This document shows positions 1 to 11,147 of a stretch of DNA of 16,897 bases, piece by piece. The translations under genes were made by a program, and so were the position numbers. The first letter of the stretch is position 1. Each line of letters opens with the position of its first letter. This DNA comes from a virus, in UHGV virus genome UHGV-0124835; one strand, given 5' to 3'. Below the pieces are notes generated by a model. It saw nothing but the letters and a program-made list of their open reading frames with translations. It ran no database searches and was not told the DNA's origin.

Positions 1-49
1 TAAAGCGTGGTGTTGCCCTCCACGCAGTTAACATGACGGGTATTAAGGA

Positions 50-1363
50 TTAACTTACTGATTTTAATAAGCCTCTGGTGTCACTTTGGTGACTATGGGG
101 CATCATTGGGACATAATCTGTCAGCTTCTGATTCAGCATTGCGATCTGTTCTGCATTGCTGTCAGTCATCCATGCTCCGTATACATTGAATACCATCTGG
201 GCACTTGCATGGCCCATCTGGCTGGCAATGAAGCTTGGGTTTGCTCCGGCAGATAATGACCAGCACGCATAAGTGTGTCGTGACTGGTATGCCTTTCGAT
301 GCCTGATCCCTGCACGCTTAATGGCTGTTTCCCATGAGTCACCTACAGAATCGACTTTGTAGACAAAACCTACCTGTTCGCTTTTTCTAACCACTTGAGG
401 GTTAAACACGAAAGTACATTCATGGTTCACTGAACGTCCATATTCACGTAGTTGCACCTTGATGTTGTACTGCTTACCCAGTCTTGTCATTTCAGCCTGA
501 TTTTTCAGGACACTGATAGCGGGCTGGATAAGGTGCACAACCCTGTTTGTGCTTGCTTCAGTTTTCGGTAGAGTGAACTCACCAAGTTTCGTATAATTGC
601 GCCTGATGGTAATTGTTCCTGCCTTCAGATCGATATCTTCCCAGGCCAGGGAGACCAGTTCACCGTGACGCATTCCTGTGTACACAGCCAATGACCACAG
701 GTTTTTCGTCTGCTGATGTCGGCAAGCATCTATCAGGCGAATAAATTCGTCACGAGTTAGCGGATCTGGCTCTGCCCTGGCTCTTTTAAGAGGCTTAATT
801 CCCTGGAAGGGATTTGCTTCTAAGTAACCGTGATCTGCAGCAAACTGAAACATTCCAGCGATTGTCGTCATGTAATAATTTACAGTAACGACGCTCCGTC
901 CTTTTGCTGCTGCTTTGTTTTTCGTTGAATTCTGATACCCGGTAAGCAAATCTTTCCTGATATACAGCAATTCCTCTTTGGTTACCGATGACACCAGTCT
1001 ACTGCCTCCAATTTTCGGAACCATCGTTCTTGCAACGGATTCATAGCGATTGAATGCATTTGCAGAGATTTCCATTCGTTTCAGATCCAGCCACTTTTCT
1101 TCAAGTTCCTTCACCCTAATTTCTTTTTTACTTACCCCAAAAGCCTGAAGGTTGGGGGAGTCAGGGAACTGTGCAGCATAATCAAAGCTTCCTGTGCGGA
1201 TGGCAAAACATACTGATGTCCGCAGTTCCCCGGCGATCTTCCTGTTCTTGGCAGTGTCAGGGACACCAAGATTTTCCCTGACACGTTTACCTTTAAAATT
1301 AAACCAGATGCGTAATGTGCCGCCGTGGTTTTCGACGCCTGTTGGATATTTGACTTTATCCAT
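50..1363 (-). CDS. int: phage integrase, tyrosine recombinase family
   Basis: 437-aa track ORF; C-terminal region carries the tyrosine-recombinase pattern (RHTYACWSL ... GHASAQMVFNVYGAWM); sits at the prophage edge next to an excisionase-like gene. My hand count of the displayed text places the ATG 1 nt from the track start; track coordinates used. Confidence 0.9.
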   Translation of the reverse strand: MDKVKYPTGVENHGGTLRIWFNFKGKRVRENLGVPDTAKNRKIAGELRTSVCFAIRTGSFDYAAQFPDSPNLQAFGVSKKEIRVKELEEKWLDLKRMEISANAFNRYESVARTMVPKIGGSRLVSSVTKEELLYIRKDLLTGYQNSTKNKAAAKGRSVVTVNYYMTTIAGMFQFAADHGYLEANPFQGIKPLKRARAEPDPLTRDEFIRLIDACRHQQTKNLWSLAVYTGMRHGELVSLAWEDIDLKAGTITIRRNYTKLGEFTLPKTEASTNRVVHLIQPAISVLKNQAEMTRLGKQYNIKVQLREYGRSVNHECTFVFNPQVVRKSEQVGFVYKVDSVGDSWETAIKRAGIRHRKAYQSRHTYACWSLSAGANPSFIASQMGHASAQMVFNVYGAWMTDSNAEQIAMLNQKLTDYVPMMPHSHQSDTRGLLKSVS

Positions 1364-1418
1364 CGATACCTCCAGACGCCCAAGAGCGATACGAGCTTAC
1401 ATATTTCATGATATTAAA

Positions 1419-1655
1419 TCACCTGGGTTGTTTGTTTTTCATTGAGGCGACCCAGGCATCTATTGCTTTTCTGTTATACATACATTCACTGGAAGGCTTT
1501 GGATTACCGTCTGGTGATACGTGAATATACTCTCTTCCAACCATCCAGCATTCTTTCCGGGCCCGAAGAATTGTGCCTGGTTTGAGCCCGGTAATTGCGA
1601 TAAGAACGCTTTCACAAACCCATTCATTGGGAGCCAGTTGAATCACATTGCCCAT
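1419..1655 (-). CDS. xis: excisionase-like protein (DUF1233-type putative excisionase)
   Basis: 78-aa ORF immediately upstream of int on the same strand; ATG at 1655 preceded by GAGG; small basic protein resembling enterobacterial prophage excisionases from memory. Confidence 0.6.
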   Translation of the reverse strand: MGNVIQLAPNEWVCESVLIAITGLKPGTILRARKECWMVGREYIHVSPDGNPKPSSECMYNRKAIDAWVASMKNKQPR

Positions 1656-1663
1656 GTATTACC

Positions 1664-1810
1664 TCACACAACACTCAGCCCACGGCAGTGGCACCACACT
1701 TCAAACATTCGCTTCACAACTTCACGACAGTAGAAGCCGTCAACATCTCGCGTCAGGTAATAGCGATTGCCGTAACGCTGGTGGACCCATCGTTCAAATG
1801 CTTTATTCAT
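1664..1810 (-). CDS. hypothetical small protein (48 aa), not in ORF track
   Basis: Hand translation MNKAFERWVHQRYGNRYYLTRDVDGFYCREVVKRMFEVWCHCRGLSVV; ATG preceded by AAGGAAG; its TGA stop lies 8 nt before the xis ATG, and the upstream ORF stops 4 nt before its ATG, so it fits a tightly packed operon. Confidence 0.4.
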   Translation of the reverse strand: MNKAFERWVHQRYGNRYYLTRDVDGFYCREVVKRMFEVWCHCRGLSVV

Positions 1811-1813
1811 TCT

Positions 1814-2092
1814 TTACTTCCTTTTTATGGCTCGTAATTTTTTCAGGTGCTTTTCCTGCTCAGTGTCCGCGAGAATTTTGCGGTACTCCTGGTGGTCAAT
1901 ATGTTCGAACAGGCAGTTTAACTCACCAATGCGTACCCGCCCGGATCGTCCGTCCATCCGTCGAAAGAACACTGAGTGCTCAGTGATACGAGTAATCACC
2001 ACGGGGTATCCGGCTCTGTCCGTGTATATCTGACCGCGTTGAATCAAAGCGAACATGTGGTTATCCCCATCGACAAATCGAGAACACAACAA
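1814..2092 (-). CDS. hypothetical protein, possibly the remnant 3' part of a disrupted upstream gene
   Basis: 92-aa track ORF whose first codon is TTG with no convincing SD; an internal ATG (Met13) has a weak GGGGA upstream. A G6 tract lies just upstream in the junction with the previous gene. Confidence 0.35.
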   Translation of the reverse strand: MLCSRFVDGDNHMFALIQRGQIYTDRAGYPVVITRITEHSVFFRRMDGRSGRVRIGELNCLFEHIDHQEYRKILADTEQEKHLKKLRAIKRK

Positions 2093-2141
2093 ACGCTGCT
2101 GCGAATACCACCCCCCAGAGTTACGATTGCATCAGGCCAGC

Positions 2142-2885
2142 TCATTGATTCACCTCCTGCCTGTCGTCCGGCATTCGCTCACTACAGCTTATCCAACCAT
2201 CCGGAGTTACCGGAACTTGTGGAATGGCTGTCTGCTCTCGAACGTCATTAGGCGCTATAGGTTCTGCTGCCAACTGACTGGCATATTTGTTAATGGTAAC
2301 GATAAGCTCTTGCTCAGCCTCATCCAGACAATCACCGATACCTCGCCTGTCACCGTCAAAATCATCGAAATCGGCACGAATCCTGGCAACCTTCAGGATT
2401 GCGGACAACACCTCACTAGGAATTGCCGGATAGTTGGTTGACGTTTCCGCGATTTCCCGAAAATTATTGGTTGACGAATTCTTGTTTTCCCGAAAGTTTC
2501 CGGACTGAAGCATGGCGGCGCGGCAGGCGTTCCATATTTCGGCAGCAATATCGCGCTCGCTATCGGTTAATTTGTACGTTGAAACATAGCCAGAGAGCAT
2601 TTCTACGTTTTCCGGAGTTGCTTCTTCAGGCACTACCGGTGCTGGCGGGGCGATGCGTCCAAGCAACTTATTTACCTCTTTCGCCATCGCGTCATATTTA
2701 TCTAAATGGCGATTAGCTTCTAAGCAGACTCGGCGCATCTGATCTGAGTTAACTCGTTTAACTGGATCTGCTTCCAGCGATGCCAGCGCAATCCGTGCCA
2801 GTTCCATTTGTTCACCACGGGTAAGCCCGTTTTCAAGCGGATTTTTAATGAACAATTCAATACGTTCTTTGGTAATAGTGGTCAT
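2142..2885 (-). CDS. hypothetical phage protein with truncated DUF551-like C-terminus
   Basis: 247-aa ORF; C-terminus ...PDGWISCSERMPDDRQEVNQ* resembles the start of the DUF551 motif (WIsv.drlPe...) but stops before the rest of that domain. Confidence 0.7.
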   Translation of the reverse strand: MTTITKERIELFIKNPLENGLTRGEQMELARIALASLEADPVKRVNSDQMRRVCLEANRHLDKYDAMAKEVNKLLGRIAPPAPVVPEEATPENVEMLSGYVSTYKLTDSERDIAAEIWNACRAAMLQSGNFRENKNSSTNNFREIAETSTNYPAIPSEVLSAILKVARIRADFDDFDGDRRGIGDCLDEAEQELIVTINKYASQLAAEPIAPNDVREQTAIPQVPVTPDGWISCSERMPDDRQEVNQ

Positions 2886-2895
2886 GTGTTACTCC

Positions 2896-3159
2896 TTAAC
2901 CCGCAGTGCTTTCAACTGATGAGGGGAACAAAATCTTTTCATCAAACCCTGCATTCATATCATTGACAGCAACACACCAATCCATTGACGAACGATTATC
3001 AAGAGCCTCCATGATTTCATCCATGCGGCGCAGGTCATACAGGTAAATGCTTTTATCGCCAATGGTGTAAAAACCAATTTTTTTCGGTGATGGGCAGCGA
3101 TCAAGAACGTCCTGTAATTCGCTCAACCATGCTTGTTCTTTTTTTGTCAAAGTTGCCAT
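2896..3159 (-). CDS. hypothetical protein (87 aa)
   Basis: Track ORF 2896..3321 trimmed to the internal ATG at 3159 (MATLTKKEQAWLSELQ...), preceded by AAGGAGAG and lying 1 nt after the TGA stop of the upstream gene. Confidence 0.6.
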   Translation of the reverse strand: MATLTKKEQAWLSELQDVLDRCPSPKKIGFYTIGDKSIYLYDLRRMDEIMEALDNRSSMDWCVAVNDMNAGFDEKILFPSSVESTAG

Positions 3160-3160
3160 A

Positions 3161-3784
3161 TCACTCTCCTTTGATGCGAATGCCAGCGGCGCGCTCGGCT
3201 TCACTTTGTTCCCAAAACCACTTGTGAAGCTCCATAAGCTTTTCGTCAATCGGTGCATATTTGCGATTAAAGTAGGCCTGAGCATCTTTCTCAGATTCGT
3301 CCGGCAATTCGCCTGGGCCAAACAGTGTGTTATAAATCCATGCCAGTCCGCTTTTAGCGTCGCCAGTTGCCTGCCATTCGATAATCGCAGCCTGCATGAC
3401 CAGAATGTTTTTCCCGATTAACAGGTCCAGCTCTTTGAACCGGTTGCGGATGTATGCATTCTCGCTTTGTAATTTTGCGTTGCGCTTCTCTGCGGCTTCC
3501 AGCTCAACACGCAGCTTCCCTACAGTTAGCGCAATTTCCTCGTTCTCCTGATCGCGGCGTTTTATGTATTGCTGGTTTCTTTCCCGTTCATCCAGTAGTG
3601 CCAGCACGGTTTCTGGTCCGGTCAGAAATTTGAAGGCATTGAGCGCATCAATATCCACACCGTAATCTTTAAGTTCCTGTTCACTTAACAAATCATCATC
3701 AGTTGGCAACATTAACAGGCGTTCCATTGCTGGAATTGCACGTTCTGCTGCCTCACGCAGTGCCTGGTAATTAATTTCGCTCAC
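3161..3784 (-). CDS. Ead/Ea22-like family protein
   Basis: 207-aa ORF; GTG start preceded by AAGGAGG; N-terminus MSEINYQALREAAE... matches the characteristic N-terminus of lambdoid Ea22-like proteins (from memory). Confidence 0.7.
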   Translation of the reverse strand: MSEINYQALREAAERAIPAMERLLMLPTDDDLLSEQELKDYGVDIDALNAFKFLTGPETVLALLDERERNQQYIKRRDQENEEIALTVGKLRVELEAAEKRNAKLQSENAYIRNRFKELDLLIGKNILVMQAAIIEWQATGDAKSGLAWIYNTLFGPGELPDESEKDAQAYFNRKYAPIDEKLMELHKWFWEQSEAERAAGIRIKGE

Positions 3785-3830
3785 TGGTTGCCTCCTTTGC
3801 GAAGCTCTGCGGCTAAATACTCCAACGCCA

Positions 3831-4223
3831 TTACCGGGACGCCAACAAGCACAGTTCCTTTAAACTTCTTATGCAGGTGCTCGATAGCTGTATCCACGCC
3901 CTGCGCCGTACTTCAGCCAGGAAAGCATCGGTGGCCGGAGTTTCAGGAATCCGTCTCCTCATCAGTTCTATTGCATGATTGAACCCGAAATCTTCAGCAA
4001 GAGATACGTCATCCATATTGTCATTGTCGTCCTCAATATCCCGTGGTTCTGGAATTGCAGACTTTATTACCGCATTCTCCGCCGCCAGCGCCGCGCACTT
4101 GGCCTCAAGAGCGGCAACCACTTCCTGATGGTCTTTGTACTTAACGTATGAGCCGGAGATGTCATCACCTTCGGTGTTTAGCCATGCGTCATTGCAATTC
4201 ACTGCGTAGGTTCTGATGCTCAT
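3831..4223 (-). CDS. hypothetical protein (130 aa), possibly the C-terminal part of a split Ea22-like paralog
   Basis: Track ORF 3831..4280 trimmed to the ATG at 4223 (MSIRTYAVNCNDAW...), preceded by GGGAGAG; that ATG overlaps the TGA stop of the upstream 61-aa ORF (ATGA). Confidence 0.5.
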   Translation of the reverse strand: MSIRTYAVNCNDAWLNTEGDDISGSYVKYKDHQEVVAALEAKCAALAAENAVIKSAIPEPRDIEDDNDNMDDVSLAEDFGFNHAIELMRRRIPETPATDAFLAEVRRRAWIQLSSTCIRSLKELCLLASR

Positions 4224-4405
4224 GTTGATGCTCTCCCGCCCCTGACAGACGCCAGGCCAGTCAATAAAGTATCCGCACAATGCCTACCCTCAGACGTGCG
4301 CGCAGGATAAATGCCGTTATGACCCGGCAAAATATATGCTACCCATTCATCTTGCGTTGCCTGTTCCGCCGCCTCGCGCAGTGCCTGATAGTCAATCTTG
4401 CTCAC
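4220..4405 (-). CDS. Ead/Ea22-like N-terminal fragment or short paralog (61 aa)
   Basis: GTG start with AAGGAGG; N-terminus MSKIDYQALREAAEQATQDEW parallels the gene at 3161..3784; the C-terminal half is Arg/Gly-rich and looks out of frame. Confidence 0.45.
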   Translation of the reverse strand: MSKIDYQALREAAEQATQDEWVAYILPGHNGIYPARTSEGRHCADTLLTGLASVRGGRAST

Positions 4406-4977: not shown

Positions 4978-5215
4978 TTCTTACCTGTTTAAGTAACTGG
5001 TTGAACATAACACTTAGGGGATTGCTGTATCCAAACGGCAGATTGTTTACGCAGTACAGAATCATTTTGTTTTTTTCTCCAGTTCGTACTATTAACCCAT
5101 TCCACAATAACCGTGATAATTCATTACTGATAGAAGTTGCGCTTCTTCCAAGTGCGAGGGATATATCTTCTCTACTGCAATCTGGATTTTCCTGGATATA
5201 CTCGATAACGGTCAT
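4967..5215 (-). CDS. small winged-helix-like putative DNA-binding protein (83 aa)
   Basis: Track ORF 4967..5257 trimmed to the ATG at 5215 (MTVIEYIQENPDCSREDISLALGRSATSISNELSRLLWNGLIVRTGEK...) preceded by AAGGGA, directly after the TAA of the upstream gene. Confidence 0.55.
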   Translation of the reverse strand: MTVIEYIQENPDCSREDISLALGRSATSISNELSRLLWNGLIVRTGEKNKMILYCVNNLPFGYSNPLSVMFNQLLKQVRNGN

Positions 5216-5225
5216 GTGGTCCCTT

Positions 5226-5807
5226 TTACTTAATATCTGTTTCGGATTGCATGCCATGAGTATTTATTTCGTTAATAATTTCATCCAGAAGGATTTCAAG
5301 CCCTTCTCGACCCATATCTGAAAGAATGAAACCTTTATCAGGGGAAGTAGTGAGCATTTTCTGATAAAGAAACAGCGCTCTTCCCATTCCTTCAGCTTCG
5401 CCGTATTTTTGAATTAAATTCCATTCAATATACTGTTGTAAGGCAAATCGAATGGGGCCGGGATATATCGTCATAAACCCATACATCCCGTTATATACCA
5501 CGGCGTGTTCAGTTGTTCCGTGTTCATTCAGGATATCAATTGTGCCGTTCTTGTCTTCTTCTTCGTTGATGAATGTCGTCACATACAACCATCGCCACTG
5601 AGCAACCTTCATCTCAACCGGAAGTTTACCCAGTAATCCTGCTTCGTCGGCTTGCGCCAGACACTGAAGGATACGTAAACCTCGCACATTAGGAGTATCG
5701 AATTCTCCGGCATCCAGACGACGTATGGCGTCGTGATAATCAATCGTCATACTGCCAGTTCGTATACCATTGGCTGTTGCTTCAGCCTGGAATTCATCGT
5801 ATTGCAT
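5226..5807 (-). CDS. hypothetical protein (193 aa)
   Basis: ATG at 5807 preceded by GAGGAA; long well-formed ORF with no motif I recognise. Confidence 0.7.
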   Translation of the reverse strand: MQYDEFQAEATANGIRTGSMTIDYHDAIRRLDAGEFDTPNVRGLRILQCLAQADEAGLLGKLPVEMKVAQWRWLYVTTFINEEEDKNGTIDILNEHGTTEHAVVYNGMYGFMTIYPGPIRFALQQYIEWNLIQKYGEAEGMGRALFLYQKMLTTSPDKGFILSDMGREGLEILLDEIINEINTHGMQSETDIK

Positions 5808-5896
5808 GATATTTATTCCTCATCTTCATCTTCATCTGCTGGTGCAATAACGTCATATCCTGCCCTTTCTGCAATAAACAGGAATGTTGAAAGAGT

Positions 5897-6001
5897 TCAT
5901 ACAAGTTCATCGTCATGAACATGGCGAATGAATATTACTTTCCCGTTTTTGATGGTCAGCAATACTCTGGTTTGTTCGTGTTCTGCTGTTTTCTGATGCA
6001 T
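5897..6001 (-). CDS. hypothetical small protein (34 aa), not in ORF track
   Basis: Hand translation MHQKTAEHEQTRVLLTIKNGKVIFIRHVHDDELV; ATG preceded by GGGAGA; the frame stays open past its TGA for 27 more codons ending in an acidic tail (ADEDEDEE). Confidence 0.3.
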   Translation of the reverse strand: MHQKTAEHEQTRVLLTIKNGKVIFIRHVHDDELV

Positions 6002-6003
6002 TA

Positions 6004-6117
6004 TTATCTCCCGTATGCTTTACGCAGAAATAAGCAGGCAATATGCATGTAATTTTCACCGTATTGTGCAATAAGGCAGGCGGTCTTGTGTGATGCCATA
6101 TTCTTTATAAAAGTCAC
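6004..6117 (-). CDS. hypothetical small protein (37 aa), not in ORF track
   Basis: GTG start 7 nt downstream of a perfect AGGAGG; TAA stop abuts the ATG of the next small ORF (TAATAATG). Confidence 0.3.
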   Translation of the reverse strand: MTFIKNMASHKTACLIAQYGENYMHIACLFLRKAYGR

Positions 6118-6195
6118 AATAAAGCCTCCTGTGGATTAAGGTTGTAACAATCCCCGGCGATAAAACCGCAATAAACGTTCAGGGCATATTTGTTG

Positions 6196-6561
6196 TTATT
6201 GCGCTAATTCTTTTTCGGCAGCAGCTTTTGTATACTCACATGCAAAACTCAGAATTTCGCTGCCGAGTGTTTTCGTTTCGTGATTACTGGACATATGTAA
6301 TACCTGTGTTGCATGCAATAAATGATAAACATTTACCGCAAATGAATCAGGCTCCAGACAAATGCCTTCGTAATTATCTTGCTGTGAGGTTGTTTCTGTC
6401 ATTGCTCCTAAAGTGCATGCGAGCCTGTTTTTGACAATTCTCTTTTCTCTAATCACTATATCGGCAACATCTATTGCCTTTACAACCTCCGGGAGAAGTT
6501 CCGGGTTTGTATAATCAAAGTCATCAACATGGAGAACAGTTATGTTTTCGAACTTTTTCAT
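6196..6561 (-). CDS. hypothetical protein (121 aa), second gene of the cI-downstream module
   Basis: ATG at 6561 preceded by GAGGAAG; no recognisable motif. Confidence 0.65.
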   Translation of the reverse strand: MKKFENITVLHVDDFDYTNPELLPEVVKAIDVADIVIREKRIVKNRLACTLGAMTETTSQQDNYEGICLEPDSFAVNVYHLLHATQVLHMSSNHETKTLGSEILSFACEYTKAAAEKELAQ

Positions 6562-6599
6562 GGCTTCCTCAGCTGACTTATATGTTCTGCTATATAGCG

Positions 6600-6628
6600 A
6601 GTCTCAGAAGTGTTTTCATATTGAGACT
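6600..6628. promoter_or_regulatory. 7-bp inverted repeat (AGTCTCA-N15-TGAGACT) upstream of the 121-aa gene
   Basis: Perfect 7-bp arms with a 15-nt spacer, about 40 nt upstream of the ATG at 6561, overlapping a TATATA -10-like element on the minus strand. Confidence 0.35.
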
Positions 6629-6689
6629 GTTTCCGCAATGATTGATAAAAATGTTCGCATGTACCTTGAAGGGCGAAGCGGCGATTATG

Positions 6690-7238
6690 TCACCATTGGT
6701 ATTGGTTCTTCCGCAGAAGAGCTTCGCGAGATAAGGGGCAAACTTGTTGAGATGCGTCATGGTGTTGCTGCTCCTCACTTTTTGGTTGCTCCGGAGGAGT
6801 AACCTCACCAGTTAACAGCCACATCGGATCGCAGCCAAGAATATTTGCCAGTGGGATAAGCATACTGATAGTTGGTTCATACTCTCCGCTCTCCCACTGG
6901 ATGATAATTTCTTCATCGAGATCGAGCAGCCTGGCGAGTTCGGCGGTTGTTAAGCCGCAGGCTTCGCGTTGGGTGCGAAGGTTAACCAGCCAGCTTTCAG
7001 GGAAGGATTGTTTTTGTTGTGCAGGAGAAGCAGCAGATAGAGCATATTCATGGATAAATTCCATTACCTCAATGCCCAGTTCCTTTGAGCGAGCACAATC
7101 CAGAAGATGGAATGTGCGTACAGCACTTAGCAAATTTGCAATATTTAATGCAAAGGAATCAAGTTCTAAGCCCTTAAGCGTAACACAGCCGCAGTTGATA
7201 AAATTAGTTGTTTCTGGAGTTGCTTTTAGTGTCTTCAT
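6690..7238 (-). CDS. XRE-family helix-turn-helix domain protein with unknown N-terminal domain
   Basis: Track ORF 6690..7268 trimmed to the ATG at 7238 (MKTLKATPETT...); residues LTTAELARLLDLDEEIIIQWESGEYEPTISMLIPLANILGCDPMWLL match the Cro/C1-type HTH consensus; the ~95-aa N-terminal region is unrecognised. Confidence 0.7.
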   Translation of the reverse strand: MKTLKATPETTNFINCGCVTLKGLELDSFALNIANLLSAVRTFHLLDCARSKELGIEVMEFIHEYALSAASPAQQKQSFPESWLVNLRTQREACGLTTAELARLLDLDEEIIIQWESGEYEPTISMLIPLANILGCDPMWLLTGEVTPPEQPKSEEQQHHDASQQVCPLSREALLRKNQYQW

Positions 7239-7350
7239 ATATCCGCCAACAATTTTAAATTGAATCAAATCAAGTTATAATTGATGGTGCGATATTATGT
7301 TTTGGGAAACAGGCTGTCAAGAAAAAATTGATATCGTATATTTCAGGCAG

Positions 7351-7372
7351 AAAAAAACGGGCAAAGCCCGTT
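7351..7372 (-). terminator. rho-independent terminator downstream of cI
   Basis: On the minus strand ACGGGC-TTT-GCCCGT followed by T7 (plus strand shows A7-CGGGC-AAA-GCCCG-TT), 12 nt after the cI stop. Confidence 0.75.
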
Positions 7373-7383
7373 AAAATCAAAGA

Positions 7384-8073
7384 CTAACCAAATCTGTTTA
7401 TGTTGAATGGTACTGATGAGATCACTTTAGACTGGATATAAAGCAGAGCTAACCCCTCTTTTTCGATGCTCCATGGTTGATAATTGGGGTTATCAGATAA
7501 CACCATGATTTTGCTTCCAATTTTTTGAAGCCTTTTCACGTAGCATTCTCCATCAAAACAAAATGCATAAATACCATCGCCATCAAAATAAGTTACTGTC
7601 TTATCAAGAAAAAGAAGGTCGCCAGGTGAGATTGTGGGAGCCATACTGTCTCCTCTGGCGTTACCTATTTCTATATTTTTGAATGCCCGATTTCCAACAA
7701 GACGTCGGGCATATTCAGGATCAAGTTCTATTGAGCGCACTACATCTATCAAGTCACCACGGACATGAGTTCCATCACCGCAACTAAACTCAACATCAAG
7801 GACATTAAATACGACGCTATCTGTTCTTGTCTGGTGTTTCTCTTGCGAGGAAAAGGTTGGTGAGGAGTCTTCACCTAAGAACCAGGATTGTGGATAACCG
7901 CTAATCTCTGATAAATGCGCGAGCTTATCACTCCGTGGAAATGTTTTTCCTGTTGTCCAGTACTGCACTGATTGCGCACTCACACCTAACTTGCGGGCCA
8001 GTTGAGCCTGAGTCCATCCTTTTGCTTTCAGCATCGCGGCTATTCGATTTTCCGTGTTTTTGACGTTCTTCAT
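7384..8073 (-). CDS. cI-like prophage repressor (N-terminal HTH, C-terminal S24 LexA-like peptidase domain)
   Basis: Track ORF trimmed to the ATG at 8073 (MKNVKNTENRIAAMLKAKGWTQAQLARKLGVSAQSVQYW...); HTH near the N-terminus and a C-terminal domain with GDSMAPTISPGDLLFLD and a KRL motif typical of S24 autocleaving repressors; divergent from a cro-like gene. Confidence 0.9.
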   Translation of the reverse strand: MKNVKNTENRIAAMLKAKGWTQAQLARKLGVSAQSVQYWTTGKTFPRSDKLAHLSEISGYPQSWFLGEDSSPTFSSQEKHQTRTDSVVFNVLDVEFSCGDGTHVRGDLIDVVRSIELDPEYARRLVGNRAFKNIEIGNARGDSMAPTISPGDLLFLDKTVTYFDGDGIYAFCFDGECYVKRLQKIGSKIMVLSDNPNYQPWSIEKEGLALLYIQSKVISSVPFNINRFG

Positions 8074-8206
8074 GACCAAATCCTGTGGGTTTCTTTACAA
8101 GGATAAATCTTTACTTGATTTTAGTGTATTCGATCCTTTTGTAACTTGCATGTTAATTTAAACTTGATGTATTCTTGATTTATAAAGTTAATATTGGTGC
8201 TTTGTT
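8074..8206. promoter_or_regulatory. immunity-region intergenic: divergent cI/cro promoters and probable operators
   Basis: 133-nt AT-rich spacer between divergent repressor genes containing four CTTG(A/C) repeats (TACTTGAT 8111, AACTTGCA 8142, AACTTGAT 8160, TTCTTGAT 8172) plus TTACAAG/CTTGTAA-like elements; exact operators and -10/-35 boxes not resolved. Confidence 0.5.
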
Positions 8207-8479
8207 ATGGAAGGAAATGATTACGACAAACTTCGTGCATTAATTGCGCAAAATGCCATAGCGCGAAATCTTGGTGTGACGCCGCAAGCGGTGAATCAGT
8301 GGTTTTCAAAAAACACAATTCCTGCTCGTTTCGTTTTACGCGTATGTGAAGTAGTTGCATGGAAGGTCACGCCACATGGCTTAAGGCCAGATCTTTATCC
8401 TCACCCTGAAGATGGAATTCCTGATTCGTTACGCAAAATTTCAAATCCAAGCTTAGCGCACACAGAGGACGAGAAGTGA
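8207..8479 (+). CDS. Cro/YdaS-like HTH transcriptional regulator
   Basis: 90-aa ORF divergent from cI; motif LGVTPQAVNQWFSKNTIPARFVLRVCEVV...GLRPDLYPHPED resembles YdaS/Cro-family proteins. Confidence 0.75.
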   Translation: MEGNDYDKLRALIAQNAIARNLGVTPQAVNQWFSKNTIPARFVLRVCEVVAWKVTPHGLRPDLYPHPEDGIPDSLRKISNPSLAHTEDEK

Positions 8480-8519
8480 TGGTGGTGATATGAGCGAAAA
8501 AATAACTATTAAATACGAT

Positions 8520-8542
8520 GGGGCAACCATTTCGATTGCCCC
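8520..8542. terminator. hairpin between the convergent cro-like gene and the 8550..8843 gene
   Basis: GGGGCAA-N9-TTGCCCC stem-loop 8 nt beyond the stop of the minus-strand gene; a T-rich tract follows on the minus strand only after about 15 nt, so terminator function is tentative. Confidence 0.3.
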
Positions 8543-8549
8543 AATCACA

Positions 8550-8843
8550 TTAGCGTTCGCTGAGAAGTTGTTGGTAAGCCTTAAAGGATGCGAACTGCAT
8601 TCTACCTTCGGCATTGATTCCAATGCCTTCGCTTGTACACCAGGTGATGAACTCGGCTGTATCCGCTTCAACTTTAATAACTCGTTGCCCGCTTCTTTCG
8701 ACACGCTTAATCAATTTTTCAGCGTCGTGTTTCCACTCGGTGTAACTGTCGGAGAGCACATCAGCATCAGTAAAAATATTTTTGAGCTCATGATACTGAA
8801 TCGCATCGCGAAACCAGAATAAACCAACGGCCTGAACTTTCAT
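8550..8843 (-). CDS. hypothetical protein (97 aa), convergent to cro
   Basis: ATG at 8843 preceded by AAGGAGGT at ideal spacing; protein-like composition (MKVQAVGLFWFRDAIQYHELKNIF...). The overlapping plus-strand ORF 8490..8822 is judged antisense. Confidence 0.55.
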   Translation of the reverse strand: MKVQAVGLFWFRDAIQYHELKNIFTDADVLSDSYTEWKHDAEKLIKRVERSGQRVIKVEADTAEFITWCTSEGIGINAEGRMQFASFKAYQQLLSER

Positions 8844-8962
8844 GTCGAACCTCCTTTGGTTCTTTTGTTTATAGGGATCAAAAGGATAACTGAAGGAAGG
8901 TTCGGCACCAATAAGTACGAATGTGCGGAATCTTAAAAGAATTTATCCGTAAGGAGATGGCA

Positions 8963-9568
8963 GTGAACACCGCAATTTTTAACGACAAAGCATCCATGAC
9001 CAGCGTTGAGATCGCAGAGCTGGTGGGTAGTCAGCACTCAGATGTTAAACGTAGTATCGAACGCCTGGTTGCTAAAAACATCATCCGGAAACCGCCAATG
9101 GCTGTTTCCGAGAAAATCAATAACTTAGGTTTTAAAGTTCAATATGAGCATTACCTGTTTGAAGGAGAACAAGGTAAGCGCGACAGCATCATTGTCGTCG
9201 CACAGCTCTGCCCTGAATTCACTGCTCGCCTGGTAGATCGCTGGCGTGAACTGGAAGAACAGATCCGTAAGCCAATGAGCGAAATCGAAATGGTTGCCGC
9301 GATGGCTCTTGAAGCCGTTCGCCAACAGAAACGGATCACTCAGGTGGAAGAAAAAGTCAGCCACGTTGCTGAAACAGTCGAGCAAATTAAAAAGGGCACT
9401 ATTCGTGAGGGCTATGCCGGATATCGCCAACTGAAAGCAAAAACCGGTTTGTCAGATGATAACCGCGAGGGACTCGCTGGTATCACCCGAAAATGGGGTT
9501 ATTTCAGGTTATTGGTTGGCAGCGGTGAAAAAAAGCCGGGAGTAACCCGGCTCACTCAACATCAATAA
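8963..9568 (+). CDS. Rha-family phage regulatory protein (antirepressor-like), paralog 1
   Basis: Motif MTSVEIAELVGSQHSDVKRSIERL typical of the Phage_pRha family. The track ORF starts at ATG 8921 with no SD; an in-frame ATG at 8957 abuts the AAGGAG; the GTG at 8963 has the best SD spacing and is used here. Confidence 0.75.
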   Translation: MNTAIFNDKASMTSVEIAELVGSQHSDVKRSIERLVAKNIIRKPPMAVSEKINNLGFKVQYEHYLFEGEQGKRDSIIVVAQLCPEFTARLVDRWRELEEQIRKPMSEIEMVAAMALEAVRQQKRITQVEEKVSHVAETVEQIKKGTIREGYAGYRQLKAKTGLSDDNREGLAGITRKWGYFRLLVGSGEKKPGVTRLTQHQ

Positions 9569-9658
9569 CGGGGAGCTGTTTCGCATAAAACGGCTCCGAA
9601 ACATCCAAGAACAGTTCTAAAGATATCAGCAGCTATATGATCATTTCAAGACCAAATA

Positions 9659-9687
9659 TTGATTCTGCAATTTCGGGACGTTACACT
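9659..9687 (+). promoter_or_regulatory. sigma70-like promoter of Rha module A (TTGATT-N17-TACACT)
   Basis: Read directly: TTGATT, 17-nt spacer, TACACT; the same element recurs almost base-for-base at 10315..10343. Confidence 0.55.
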
Positions 9688-9795
9688 GTCTCTGCACCTT
9701 ATAAAGCGGGTGCCGGGGGTCGCAGCCCGGAATTGCATACGGCGATATATGACGCGCCAGCGTCTTTTTTATCGTCCGCGCTCACGCACGCCAGA

Positions 9796-9906
9796 ATTAT
9801 GGTGGGCTGGGCAGGGGAGCCGAAAGGCTCGCCGGTTTCCGTATGCGCCGGTACTGCGAACCCTGTTCAGTTCACCACCCATGAGTTTCGCAGCTCCGGT
9901 GGTGGA
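9796..9906 (+). ncRNA. c4-like antisense RNA candidate, module A
   Basis: Conserved ATTATGGTGGG box; GAAA-tetraloop hairpin 9817-9830; CCGG-closed 12-nt loop TTTCCGTATGCG (9836-9847) complementary to TGCATACGGAGG at the SD of the downstream gene; 8-bp TCACCACC/GGTGGTGG stem (9872-9879 with 9898-9905). Ends are not defined. Confidence 0.5.
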
Positions 9907-9916
9907 AGTTATCCAT

Positions 9917-9928
9917 TGCATACGGAGG
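9917..9928 (+). promoter_or_regulatory. antisense target site overlapping the SD of Rha paralog 2
   Basis: TGCATACGGAGG pairs with loop 9836-9847 over 12 positions (9 Watson-Crick plus 3 G-U); a direct repeat of the core ATTGCATACGG is at 9731-9741. Confidence 0.5.
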
Positions 9929-9936
9929 CTGCCATC

Positions 9937-10299
9937 ATGGCTACTGTCCTAACTTCCCCATTCCTAAAAATCGAAGTCGTCAACGGCAAGGCCGTTATTT
10001 TCTCCCTGCATGTTGCCTGCCATTTCAAGCGCATGCACCAGAACATCGTTGACAAAATCGAGTATCTGAACTGCTCACGCGAGTTTTTTACCCGCAATTT
10101 CATACCGGGTACTTATCACATCTACGGTGACTCCCTGCGTGGTTATTACATCACCCTTGATGGTCTGATGATGCTTCAGCTTGGGTTAAGTCTGCGCACA
10201 ATGCGGTACTACGAGAGCTGCATTGAAGCATTCCATGAGGCTGAAACCGTCCAGGGTCACTCCGCGTTCCGTCGTAATCAACGGGAGGTGCACCTATGA
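9937..10299 (+). CDS. Rha-family phage regulatory protein, paralog 2 (120 aa)
   Basis: ATG at 9937 with GGAGG 8 nt upstream; Rha-like core IEVVNGKAVIFSLHVACHFKRMHQNIVDKIEYLNCSREF...YYITLDGLMML. The track ORF extends upstream to 9637 through the leader; that extension is judged non-coding. Confidence 0.65.
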   Translation: MATVLTSPFLKIEVVNGKAVIFSLHVACHFKRMHQNIVDKIEYLNCSREFFTRNFIPGTYHIYGDSLRGYYITLDGLMMLQLGLSLRTMRYYESCIEAFHEAETVQGHSAFRRNQREVHL

Positions 10300-10314
10300 T
10301 CCGCCACCAGCATA

Positions 10315-10343
10315 TTGATTCTGCAATTCCGGGACGTTACACT
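10315..10343 (+). promoter_or_regulatory. sigma70-like promoter of Rha module B (TTGATT-N17-TACACT)
   Basis: Same element and spacing as 9659..9687, inside a ~60-nt block nearly identical between the two modules. Confidence 0.55.
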
Positions 10344-10451
10344 GTCTCCGCACCTTATAAAGCGGGTGCCGGGCGTGGAAACCCGAAATTCAATATAGAG
10401 CACAACCGCGCTCATGCGGTTTTTTCGTGTCATGAGCATCGTTACGCCCAA

Positions 10452-10564
10452 ATTATGGTGGGGCGTGCAGGGCCAACTTCGGTTGGGCCGGGTTCTATGT
10501 TGACCGGTATTTCCACCCCTGTACGTCTCACCACCTATATGGTCGTGGAAAGCCTTGGTGGTGA
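10452..10564 (+). ncRNA. c4-like antisense RNA candidate, module B
   Basis: Same architecture as module A with compensatory changes: UUCG-tetraloop hairpin CCAAC-TTCG-GTTGG (10473-10486); CCGG-closed 12-nt loop GTTCTATGTTGA (10492-10503) complementary to TCAACATAGGGG at the SD of the downstream gene; conserved TCACCACC/GGTGGTGA stem. Confidence 0.5.
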
Positions 10565-10575
10565 GTTCATTGAAT

Positions 10576-10587
10576 TCAACATAGGGG
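10576..10587 (+). promoter_or_regulatory. antisense target site overlapping the SD of Rha paralog 3
   Basis: TCAACATAGGGG pairs with loop 10492-10503 (9 Watson-Crick plus 2 G-U); an upstream near-repeat TCAATATAGAG is at 10390-10400. Confidence 0.5.
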
Positions 10588-10595
10588 CTGTCACC

Positions 10596-11147
10596 ATGAC
10601 TACTCTCCCAACCCAATCTCACCCTGAAATCACGATTATCAATGGTCGCGTTGTCACCACATCTCTTGCAGTAGCTAATTACTTTACTAAACGGCATGAG
10701 CGGGTTTTAGATAGAATTAGAAACCTCGAATGTTCCGCTGAATTTACTGAACACAATTTTGTGTTAAGTGAATACACCGACGCATCAGGCCGCAAACTCC
10801 CTTGTTACCAAATCACCCGCGACGGTTTTGCGTTTCTTGCCATGGGCTTCACTGGTAAACGTGCTGCCCGGTTCAAAGAGGCATACATCAACGCCTTTAA
10901 CCTGATGGAGAAGAGTTTATCAGGTGCCGATGCGTCTGATATGTCAGCTGTCGCACGAAACGCCAGAGGCGTATACCTGCATTTGCGTGAAATCCATCAA
11001 ATCTGGACAAGCCAGCTTTATCCAATGCTTAAGGCCGTTGAATCTCCGCTGGCTAGCAAACTGTACGACCGTGTTGGTGATGCTGTTTTTGGCGCTGCAC
11101 TTGTTGATTCCAGGCTGAATGGTTCTGACAAGGAGGTTCGCCCATGA
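10596..11147 (+). CDS. Rha-family phage regulatory protein, paralog 3 (183 aa)
   Basis: ATG at 10596 with AGGGG 8 nt upstream; Rha-like core ITIINGRVVTTSLAVANYFTKRHERVLDRIRNLECSAEF...YQITRDGFAFLAMGFTGKRAARFKEAYINAFN. The track ORF extends upstream to 10296 through the leader. Confidence 0.65.
   Translation: MTTLPTQSHPEITIINGRVVTTSLAVANYFTKRHERVLDRIRNLECSAEFTEHNFVLSEYTDASGRKLPCYQITRDGFAFLAMGFTGKRAARFKEAYINAFNLMEKSLSGADASDMSAVARNARGVYLHLREIHQIWTSQLYPMLKAVESPLASKLYDRVGDAVFGAALVDSRLNGSDKEVRP

Follow-up and report, generated by a model that had tools for sequence, protein, structure and literature searches.

The DNA analyzed here, referred to as the window, is a stretch of 16,897 nucleotides (nt) from the virus genome UHGV-0124835. 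It is a lambdoid prophage of Escherichia coli and is nearly identical to the prophage beside yecE in strain AF39. Between the cro-like repressor gene and the first of three Rha/Ant-type genes, a gene for a protein of 97 amino acids (aa) lies on the minus strand, opposing the rightward early (PR) operon. The initial annotation of this DNA had placed such an open reading frame (ORF) at 8550..8843, and it is present there. We found that the gene belongs to a self-contained accessory cassette (a moron) of ~430 bp, located where the cI-cro immunity module gives way to the following early module (here Rha). The DNA at the head of the cassette is shared with cassettes that carry unrelated genes. It contains a predicted promoter and a Shine-Dalgarno sequence (SD) on one strand and a predicted RNA hairpin on the other. 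The features of the junction are as follows.

8207..8479, plus strand: cro-like repressor gene, 90 aa, with a YdaS/Cro helix-turn-helix (HTH); Pfam YdaS_toxin (expect value, E = 1.6e-12) and P22_Cro (7e-5); phrog_35
8470..8951, no strand: insert of 482 bp relative to the insert-free phage PhiR49_2, comprising the whole accessory cassette and its flanks
8490..8822, plus strand: shadow ORF of 110 aa, the codon-aligned antisense frame of the 97-aa gene
8519..8543, minus strand: 3' stem-loop of the mRNA of the 97-aa gene, a terminator or stabilizer (terminator scan, 11 pairs)
8550..8843, minus strand: 97-aa protein gene, phrog_4753 family, WP_000867914.1 in RefSeq; ATG at 8843-8841, stop at 8550-8552
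8841..8951, no strand: segment with 97-99% identity to E. coli prophages that have other cargo in the same slot
8843..8907, plus strand: conserved long hairpin, ~65 nt, in PR-sense RNA (from folding of 44 variants)
8849..8856, minus strand: SD AAGGAGGT, 5 nt (TCGAC) before the ATG at 8843-8841
8883..8911, minus strand: predicted sigma-70 promoter, leftward; -35 TTGGTG at 8911-8906, 17-bp spacer, -10 TATCCT at 8888-8883
8967-8962 and 8945-8940, minus strand: -35 (TTCACT) and -10 (TAAATT) of a second candidate leftward promoter
8963..9568, plus strand: Rha paralog 1 (Pfam Phage_pRha, phrog_63); GTG start at 8963 (the RefSeq start), SD AAGGAG at 8951-8956

The protein is encoded on the minus strand

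Two overlapping frames are open in the cassette, one on each strand. All 97 residues of the minus-strand ORF aligned to phrog_4753 (positions 1-97 of the 97-position profile, E = 1.8e-49). We analyzed selection in 16 distinct alleles (IMG/VR contigs, Klebsiella and Pectobacterium prophages) that diverge down to 77% amino-acid identity. Variable columns at codon positions 1, 2 and 3 of the minus frame numbered 30, 13 and 75, respectively. Among divergent alleles, the pairwise ratio of nonsynonymous to synonymous substitution rates (dN/dS) was 0.03-0.12 in the minus frame, compared to 0.65-2.3 in the codon-aligned plus frame. Judging from these substitutions, the 97-aa ORF is a genuine protein gene under strong purifying selection.

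We considered the converse, that the plus-strand ORF at 8490..8822 is the real product, translated after cro in the PR operon, and that the 97-aa ORF is its shadow. The plus ORF begins 11 nt past the cro stop and is preceded by an SD-like run (GGTGGTG). The equivalent frame remains open in distant homologues; it is the annotated frame in phage EKP1 and was also called in a Pectobacterium contig. However, the dN/dS values point to the other strand, and changes are concentrated at the first codon position of the plus frame. The minus frame is saturated at its synonymous sites, and so no second constraint, as from a plus-strand product, is visible there. The plus ORF has no convincing family match (a weak PHROG match only, E = 0.015), and neither its length nor its ends are conserved (110 aa vs 145 and 178 aa). 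Stops in its frame arise only from the sense codons TTA, CTA and TCA of the minus frame, and the antisense frame is nearly stop-free also in solitary chromosomal homologues that have no adjacent cro. Because of the dN/dS pattern, and because the antisense frame is open in general, we regard the plus ORF as a shadow ORF; that it is the expressed product is extremely improbable. The initial annotation had named plus-strand coding at 8490..8822 as grounds for abandoning the 97-aa gene, and the substitution pattern gave no sign of such coding.

In the deposited genome of phage EKP1 (OM284015), 'hypothetical protein 21' (3564-3896) is the shadow ORF, on the cro strand. The EKP1 homologue of phrog_4753 is on the opposite strand, at ~3501-3779, with a well-conserved leader in front.

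Two alleles have premature stops, at codons 37 and 36 (IMG/VR contigs L024 and L031; gene at 4001-4291). Because of these alleles, we take it that the 97-aa gene is occasionally inactivated.

The gene lies in an insert at a conserved slot

Comparison with an insert-free phage defined the insert. PhiR49_2 1-3370 aligned with window 5100-8469 (99.2% identity), and PhiR49_2 3383-3894 aligned with window 8952-9462 (90% identity), leaving 12 bp where the window has 482 bp. In PhiR49_2, cro overlaps the start of Roi/Rha. PPyecE_EH1910 is also without the 97-aa gene. The initial annotation had suggested that an opposite-strand gene at this spot is a moron and that synteny with related prophages would be informative. 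Both points were borne out: the gene is present or absent at the cro-Rha junction between otherwise collinear phages, and 482 bp replace 12 bp relative to PhiR49_2.

The insert recurs, and the gene occupies the same slot in all prophage contexts that we examined, which span several enterobacterial genera. It had a match in 88 of 5,426 complete E. coli genomes, and at least 80% of the insert was present in 75 of those 88. At 33 IMG/VR loci the gene was between the immunity region and Rha1, with several immunity types represented. A cro gene was recognizable in about half of these loci, on the opposite strand every time. More distant IMG/VR loci, and prophages of Klebsiella and Pectobacterium, also had the gene in the slot just downstream of cro and convergent with it. 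The gene on the far side of the slot varies in these distant contexts (Rha, cII-like or replication). In the window, cro (labeled 'transcriptional regulator' in RefSeq) closes the immunity module and is convergent with the 97-aa gene.

Differing cro proteins share the C-terminal tail PSLAHT(E/G)(D/E)EK (window 8447-8479; L050, ~2135-2167; ETEC1734 [L051], ~1804-1836), and the DNA for this tail is conserved between different immunity types. The tail resembles a mosaic junction at which cargo could be swapped by homologous recombination, with the shared leader as the other flank.

One leader heads many different cargo genes

We found that the ~70-nt leader of the cassette (8841-8912) is common to many E. 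coli prophages. Its spread was determined by pattern scans of IMG/VR and by blastn of complete E. coli genomes. The leader had blastn matches in 635 of the 5,426 E. coli genomes, at up to four places per genome. A variant of it was matched in only two deposited genomes of the phage collection. About a dozen E. coli genomes match window 8841-8951 only and carry another gene there, for example a BssS-family gene (strain U90) or a 151-aa ORF (ETEC1734). Homology between cassettes of differing cargo begins exactly at the cargo ATG.

In all, the leader heads at least ten unrelated small ORFs or cargo families. These include the 97-aa and 92-aa phrog_4753 proteins, the NCBI 'ECs1072 family' (O157:H7), a second family of ~151 aa, BssS-like proteins, and several ORFs of 70-157 aa. 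The other cargos each bring their own 3' hairpin. In O157 EC4115 the slot is between ydaT (cII-like) and a replication gene, which is the map place of lambda Po/oop. ECs1072 showed a significant expression change at growth transitions in uninduced O157 Sakai, according to a microarray table (PMC2241611). Apart from this entry, literature searches on the protein accessions, on 'downstream of cro', on ECs1072 and on leader strings found nothing relevant.

Two of these prophages have unusual slots. In ETEC1734, a 151-aa cargo ORF (2050-2505, minus strand) that is not annotated lies behind the shared leader. Part of this ORF is overlapped by an annotated 'hypothetical protein' on the other strand (1836-2228), perhaps a mis-call. 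In OkiPb01712 (L218), the slot between ydaT and the replication gene (2501-2559) is apparently without cargo. The promoter-like part and the upper stem are kept there, and the SD/ATG arm is gone. The leftward promoter would there be directed at the 3' end of ydaT, in the way that lambda Po/oop faces cII.

The cassette has predicted expression signals of its own

The cargo gene has a very strong ribosome-binding site. The sequence AAGGAGGT at 8856-8849 is a perfect 8-nt complement of the 3' end of 16S rRNA, in agreement with the strong SD reported for the 97-aa ATG in the initial annotation. We compared 44 leader variants in front of unrelated cargo. All of them share the GGAG core and the TTCG that precedes the ATG, and the remainder was nearly invariant.

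A leftward promoter is predicted just upstream. The site at 8883..8911 scored 7.8 bits with a position weight matrix (PWM), at the 99.97th percentile of the window, and the score was comparable to those of the best PR/PRM candidates. The second candidate (-35 at 8967-8962) had a PWM score like those of the same candidates. The pattern nTGGnG, 17-18 bp, TAnnnT was present in 32 of the 44 leader variants. The other 12 have a longer spacing, and most of them have an extended -10 (TGnTAnnnT, by inspection). These comparisons indicate that the cassette probably has its own promoter. Such a promoter had been proposed to lie in 8844-8955; the PWM candidates and the conservation of the first of them among leader variants support this part, and a stricter consensus scan does not.

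A CI/Cro operator within the promoter of the cassette was also considered and rejected: CAAAAGGATM had 3 occurrences, compared to 2.7 expected by chance.

At the other end of the gene is a stem-loop. The GGGGCAA/TTGCCCC hairpin previously noticed between the two stops forms by pairing of 8520-8526 with 8536-8542. It lies between the stop of the 97-aa gene (8550-8552) and that of cro (8477-8479). The 81-nt minus-strand RNA 8560-8480 folded at -24.1 kcal/mol (z = -3.0; 4 of 200 shuffles were as good). The stem-loop is conserved across genera. The minus sense was more stable in 8 of 8 variants of the 97-aa type, and single-base variants keep their pairing through G.U on the minus strand only. Because of this stability and these G.U changes, comparative evidence assigns the hairpin to the mRNA of the 97-aa gene itself.

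The leader folds as a hairpin in the PR-sense transcript

The leader also has a conserved secondary structure on the strand opposite to the cargo. In PR-sense RNA the hairpin consists of a lower stem P1 (UGUCGAACCU:AGGUUCGGCA), a 1-nt bulge, P2, an asymmetric internal loop, P3 and an apical loop. The internal loop is always the complement of the leftward -10. The upper stem, P3, is retained with differing sequences (UUCUU:AAGAA, UCUGU:ACAGA, UCCU:AGGA), and the architecture is the same in all leader types. The next rightward gene has its SD and ATG within 5-8 nt of the hairpin in most types. We found no Rfam 15 family at gathering score for 8843-8907; at E <= 5 there were chance microRNA matches only.

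We compared the stability and pairing of the two strands. The window hairpin folded at -29.3 kcal/mol on the plus strand (z = -5.5) and at -22.4 kcal/mol on the minus strand (z = -3.9). The PR sense was more stable in 43 of the 44 variants (means of -30.9 vs -23.7 kcal/mol), a comparison that, like the shuffles, overstates independence because the variants are related; the direction of the asymmetry was consistent across clearly different leader types. When the same 16-17 pairs were scored in both senses, 96.3% of cells were paired in the PR sense, compared to 82.3% in the cargo-mRNA sense. At the variable positions, PR-sense RNA alternates between U-A, U.G, C-G and G.U, whereas roughly half of the sequences have no pair there when read as cargo mRNA. 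At one position, 37 of 41 PR-sense sequences have U.G, with U-A and C-G as the alternatives; in the cargo-mRNA sense it is C.A, unpaired, in 39 of 44. A local hairpin, GAACC/GGUUC, was rejected as evidence; it is nearly invariant and hence uninformative. By these comparative criteria the module folds best, and covaries, as a PR-sense RNA hairpin. By analogy with hairpins of early phage mRNAs (see below), it is most likely an RNase III-type processing site or a 5'-stabilizing element. It may instead have a put-like role in antitermination.

The inverted repeat might instead act in the cargo mRNA, as a translational riboregulator in which the upstream arm (GCCGAACCUUCC) sequesters the SD until a signal opens it. 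The arms, 8843-8857 and 8893-8907, are indeed complementary, their pairing covers the SD, and the fold of the minus-strand RNA has a z-score of -3.9. However, the conserved -10 is between the two arms, so that a transcript from the leftward promoter would be without the upstream arm. Pairing is also poorer in the cargo-mRNA sense, in the number of paired cells, at the C.A position and in stability, and an early fold of 8915-8810 gave z = -1.2. An SD-sequestering hairpin in the 5' untranslated region (UTR) was rejected on these grounds, and we consider riboregulation by the inverted repeat hardly probable.

A third way to account for this region was proposed in the initial annotation, namely a divergent pair of promoters in 8844-8955 serving the 97-aa gene and Rha paralog 1, respectively. 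About 480 bp of insert separate Rha from cro, and a separate promoter for Rha could be useful behind the weak terminator-like hairpin and T-run on the plus strand at 8847-8862. However, the T-run is not conserved in other leader types. The best plus-strand score in 8832-8965 was 0.6 bits, compared to 7-8.7 bits for the other promoter candidates, and a consensus scan of the same region found none. In the insert-free PhiR49_2, Rha/Roi is part of the PR operon, because the gene overlaps cro there. The proposed rightward half of the pair thus found no match in the sequence, and we think divergent promoters very unlikely. The region 8843-8907 is better explained by the PR-sense hairpin.

The 97-aa protein may correspond to a dimerization domain

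Homology and structure searches, which had been proposed as a check on the gene, identified a large family and a possible structural counterpart. A search with the family profile found 1,128 cluster representatives (50%-identity clusters, E <= 1e-3), most of ~100 aa. The 92-aa variants match phrog_4753 as well (7.5e-16). Longer members of the family have no informative fused domains. Searches of the Protein Data Bank (PDB) by sequence and by profile gave no functional lead, and a fold search of BFVD returned uncharacterized homologues only.

An AlphaFold model made from a 116-sequence alignment had a mean confidence score (pLDDT) of 95.3 and the order beta-alpha-alpha-beta-alpha-alpha. Its top Foldseek match was SO3848 of Shewanella oneidensis (PDB 2OX6), with a TM score of 0.56, a non-significant E of 0.45 and 10-14% identity; the similarity would be to the C-terminal half of SO3848. 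SO3848 is an Aca2-like HTH protein with an enlarged C-terminal dimerization domain (PMC8434428), and the beta-alpha-alpha-beta-alpha-alpha order of the 97-aa protein seems to fit this extended domain. On the basis of this order, we infer that the C-terminal half of SO3848, without the HTH, is the counterpart of the 97-aa protein. Some observations set the two proteins apart. SO3848 has an HTH and the 97-aa protein has none, 2OX6 was not retrieved by the profile search of the PDB, and Aca2 and YdiL are absent from the fold matches. With 97 aa and no Pfam HTH family, the protein lacks the HTH that marks Aca2/YdiL/SO3848-like regulators.

The residues W10, D26, W37, G52, W68, C69 and R81 are near-invariant in the family. 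This set suggests a binding module rather than an enzyme.

Other features of the window

Left of the junction are the integrase gene with the leftward early operon and the repressor gene:

50-1363, minus strand: integrase, followed by the leftward early operon
7384-8079, minus strand: LexA-like CI repressor

The leftward operon also encodes a 192-aa HTH protein (6690-7268, minus strand) that matches the PHROG 'CII-like regulator' phrog_4836 (E = 2.3e-78). The cII-type regulator of this prophage may thus be on the PL side and not after cro.

To the right of the 97-aa ORF are the three Rha/Ant-type genes, then replication genes and QuuD. An Ash/Rha module at 9462-10311 is extra relative to the closest complete genome, and Rha paralog 1 is thereby shorter (201 vs 235 aa). 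The window also has two tandem copies of the isrK small RNA followed by the C4 antisense RNA (9694-9770/9795-9882 and 10350-10426/10451-10538, plus strand; Rfam scores of 58.8-83.3 bits). The copies fall within the N-terminal 'Ash' parts of the ORFs at 9637-10299 and 10296-11147. These 'Ash family' frames may be non-coding RNA genes upstream of Rha/Ant-type ORFs. We take the layout of isrK and C4 before Rha/Ant-type ORFs to resemble the c4-icd-ant arrangement of P1.

A model for the cassette

Our results are most consistent with a moron cassette that is transcribed leftward, from the promoter in its head module, in the lysogen, and that has a PR-sense hairpin on the other strand. We consider this explanation as a whole probable, with its expression side read from sequence. 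Transcription from the sigma-70 promoter of the module would start near 8876-8878, giving a 5' UTR of ~30 nt with a very strong SD. Because the cassette is head-on to PR transcription, most cargo expression would be expected in the lysogen, where PR is repressed. After induction, read-through from PR and antisense RNA would shut down the cargo. Rha and the genes beyond it would be served by PR reading through the cassette, which is the simplest arrangement because Rha has no detectable promoter of its own. The PR-sense hairpin, located between the antisense-cargo segment and the next early gene, would uncouple the downstream early mRNA from the antisense segment. The 97-aa protein would be small and cytoplasmic, and would benefit the lysogen by binding or modulating a target.

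Several observations weigh against this explanation. The GC content of the insert (0.427) is within that of its flanks (0.40-0.50), with no foreign signature. The promoter is a prediction, and a consensus promoter scan at 9/12 matches found none in the cassette. The 3' stem-loop has no clean U-tract, and because a canonical U-tract is missing, termination there may be leaky. In the window, the SD of Rha is 45 nt from the hairpin and not adjacent to it, the role for RNase III is assigned by architecture only, and the 44 leader variants are related. The 97-aa protein had no match in Pfam or NCBIfam, so its function is without family support, and none of the defense models in PADLOC-DB 2.0 matched it at E <= 1. 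Its environmental homologues are solitary genes with no conserved neighbor or partner.

Alternatively, the leftward unit could be mainly regulatory, an analogue of lambda PRE or Po/oop, with the protein as a passenger. Read-through would then be antisense to cro and extend into cI, biasing the phage toward lysogeny. In every case the unit points leftward and occupies the right-hand end of the immunity module, lying upstream of cI and co-oriented with it; its 3' hairpin has no U-tract. In O157-type prophages the slot is at the place of lambda Po/oop, between ydaT and the replication gene, and the cargo-less site retains a promoter-like part that points into ydaT. However, the cargo proteins are under strong purifying selection and each cargo has its own 3' hairpin. 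In the window this hairpin stops at 8519, leaving 40 nt before cro and hence no built-in overlap, and we saw no sequence similarity to lambda Po/oop by eye. We therefore regard a mainly regulatory unit as unlikely and favor the lysogen-expressed moron cassette.

The module matters beyond this prophage. It has matches in ~12% of complete E. coli genomes, including O157:H7, and places at least ten small conserved protein families beside the lysis-lysogeny switch. If the cargo is expressed in lysogens, these proteins are candidate prophage traits, such as phage exclusion, toxin immunity, or control of biofilm and signaling; the BssS-family cargo points to the last of these. The motif GTCGAACCTCC...GGTTCGGCACC can be used to find further cargo genes. 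For annotation, a long ORF after cro on the cro strand should be read as a shadow ORF, though one is annotated in at least one deposited phage. The module also indicates how a phage may fit a head-on gene into an essential early operon, with the same DNA serving as promoter and ribosome-binding site and as RNA structure.

Comparison with known systems

Several known systems share features with the cassette. Lambdoid morons include HK97 gp15 and lambda bor and lom. Like them, the cassette is an extra gene, located between two phage genes, that is present or absent between collinear genomes; it also has a predicted promoter of its own, a 3' stem-loop, and presumed expression from the prophage. 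Unlike these morons, which are in the late or tail region, it is inside the early PR operon and head-on to PR. It also differs in its conserved 70-bp head, common to unrelated cargos, in the RNA hairpin on the opposite strand, and in a base composition that is not atypical. A review of morons is available ('The moron comes of age', PMC3594210).

Lambda Po/oop has the same map place, at the right end of the immunity or regulatory module, with a leftward promoter that abuts the start of the next rightward gene. It is likewise a short unit that ends in a stem-loop, and in both cases the convergent RNAs could form RNase III substrates. In contrast, oop is a 77-nt non-coding RNA that overlaps the 3' end of cII. 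The cassette encodes a protein under selection, and in the window its stem-loop ends at 8519, 40 nt before the end of cro (8479). The cassette is not a member of the Po/oop type.

RNase III processing sites of phage early mRNAs include the T7 R1.1-type hairpins and the lambda N leader hairpin. These too are irregular hairpins of ~65 nt, intercistronic in the early transcript, with a long lower stem, an asymmetric internal loop and an upper stem; the hairpin of the module is mostly just before the next ribosome-binding site. Unlike those hairpins, that of the module is encoded by DNA whose opposite strand apparently doubles as promoter and ribosome-binding site. It belongs to no Rfam family, and the likeness is architectural only.

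Accessory hotspots of temperate phages include the P2/P4 defense hotspots and, next to immunity regions, lambda rexAB and BTP1 bstA. The slot described here resembles them in its fixed position beside the immunity region, in its interchangeable, mostly uncharacterized small cargo, and in its lysogen-compatible orientation. Unlike them, it is marked by a promoter and hairpin module and not only by flanking genes, and the PADLOC search was negative for the 97-aa protein.

There is thus precedent for morons, for accessory hotspots and for processing hairpins between cistrons. In the literature searches we came across no account of a two-strand module, conserved and placed behind the immunity module (cro or the cII-like ydaT), at the head of interchangeable cargo genes. 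We raise the possibility, tentatively and with some doubt, that the ~70-bp head is an undescribed bifunctional element at a lambdoid cargo-exchange hotspot. Jointly, this reading has three parts. One strand would be a constitutive promoter and ribosome-binding site for small proteins that benefit the lysogen (phrog_4753, ECs1072, BssS-like and others). The other strand would give a structured RNA that lets the PR operon tolerate a head-on insert, by processing, stabilization or antitermination. The 97-aa protein would be a free-standing counterpart of the C-terminal domain of SO3848 that acts by binding a protein of the host or of a phage, for instance in an immunity-like or anti-defense role.

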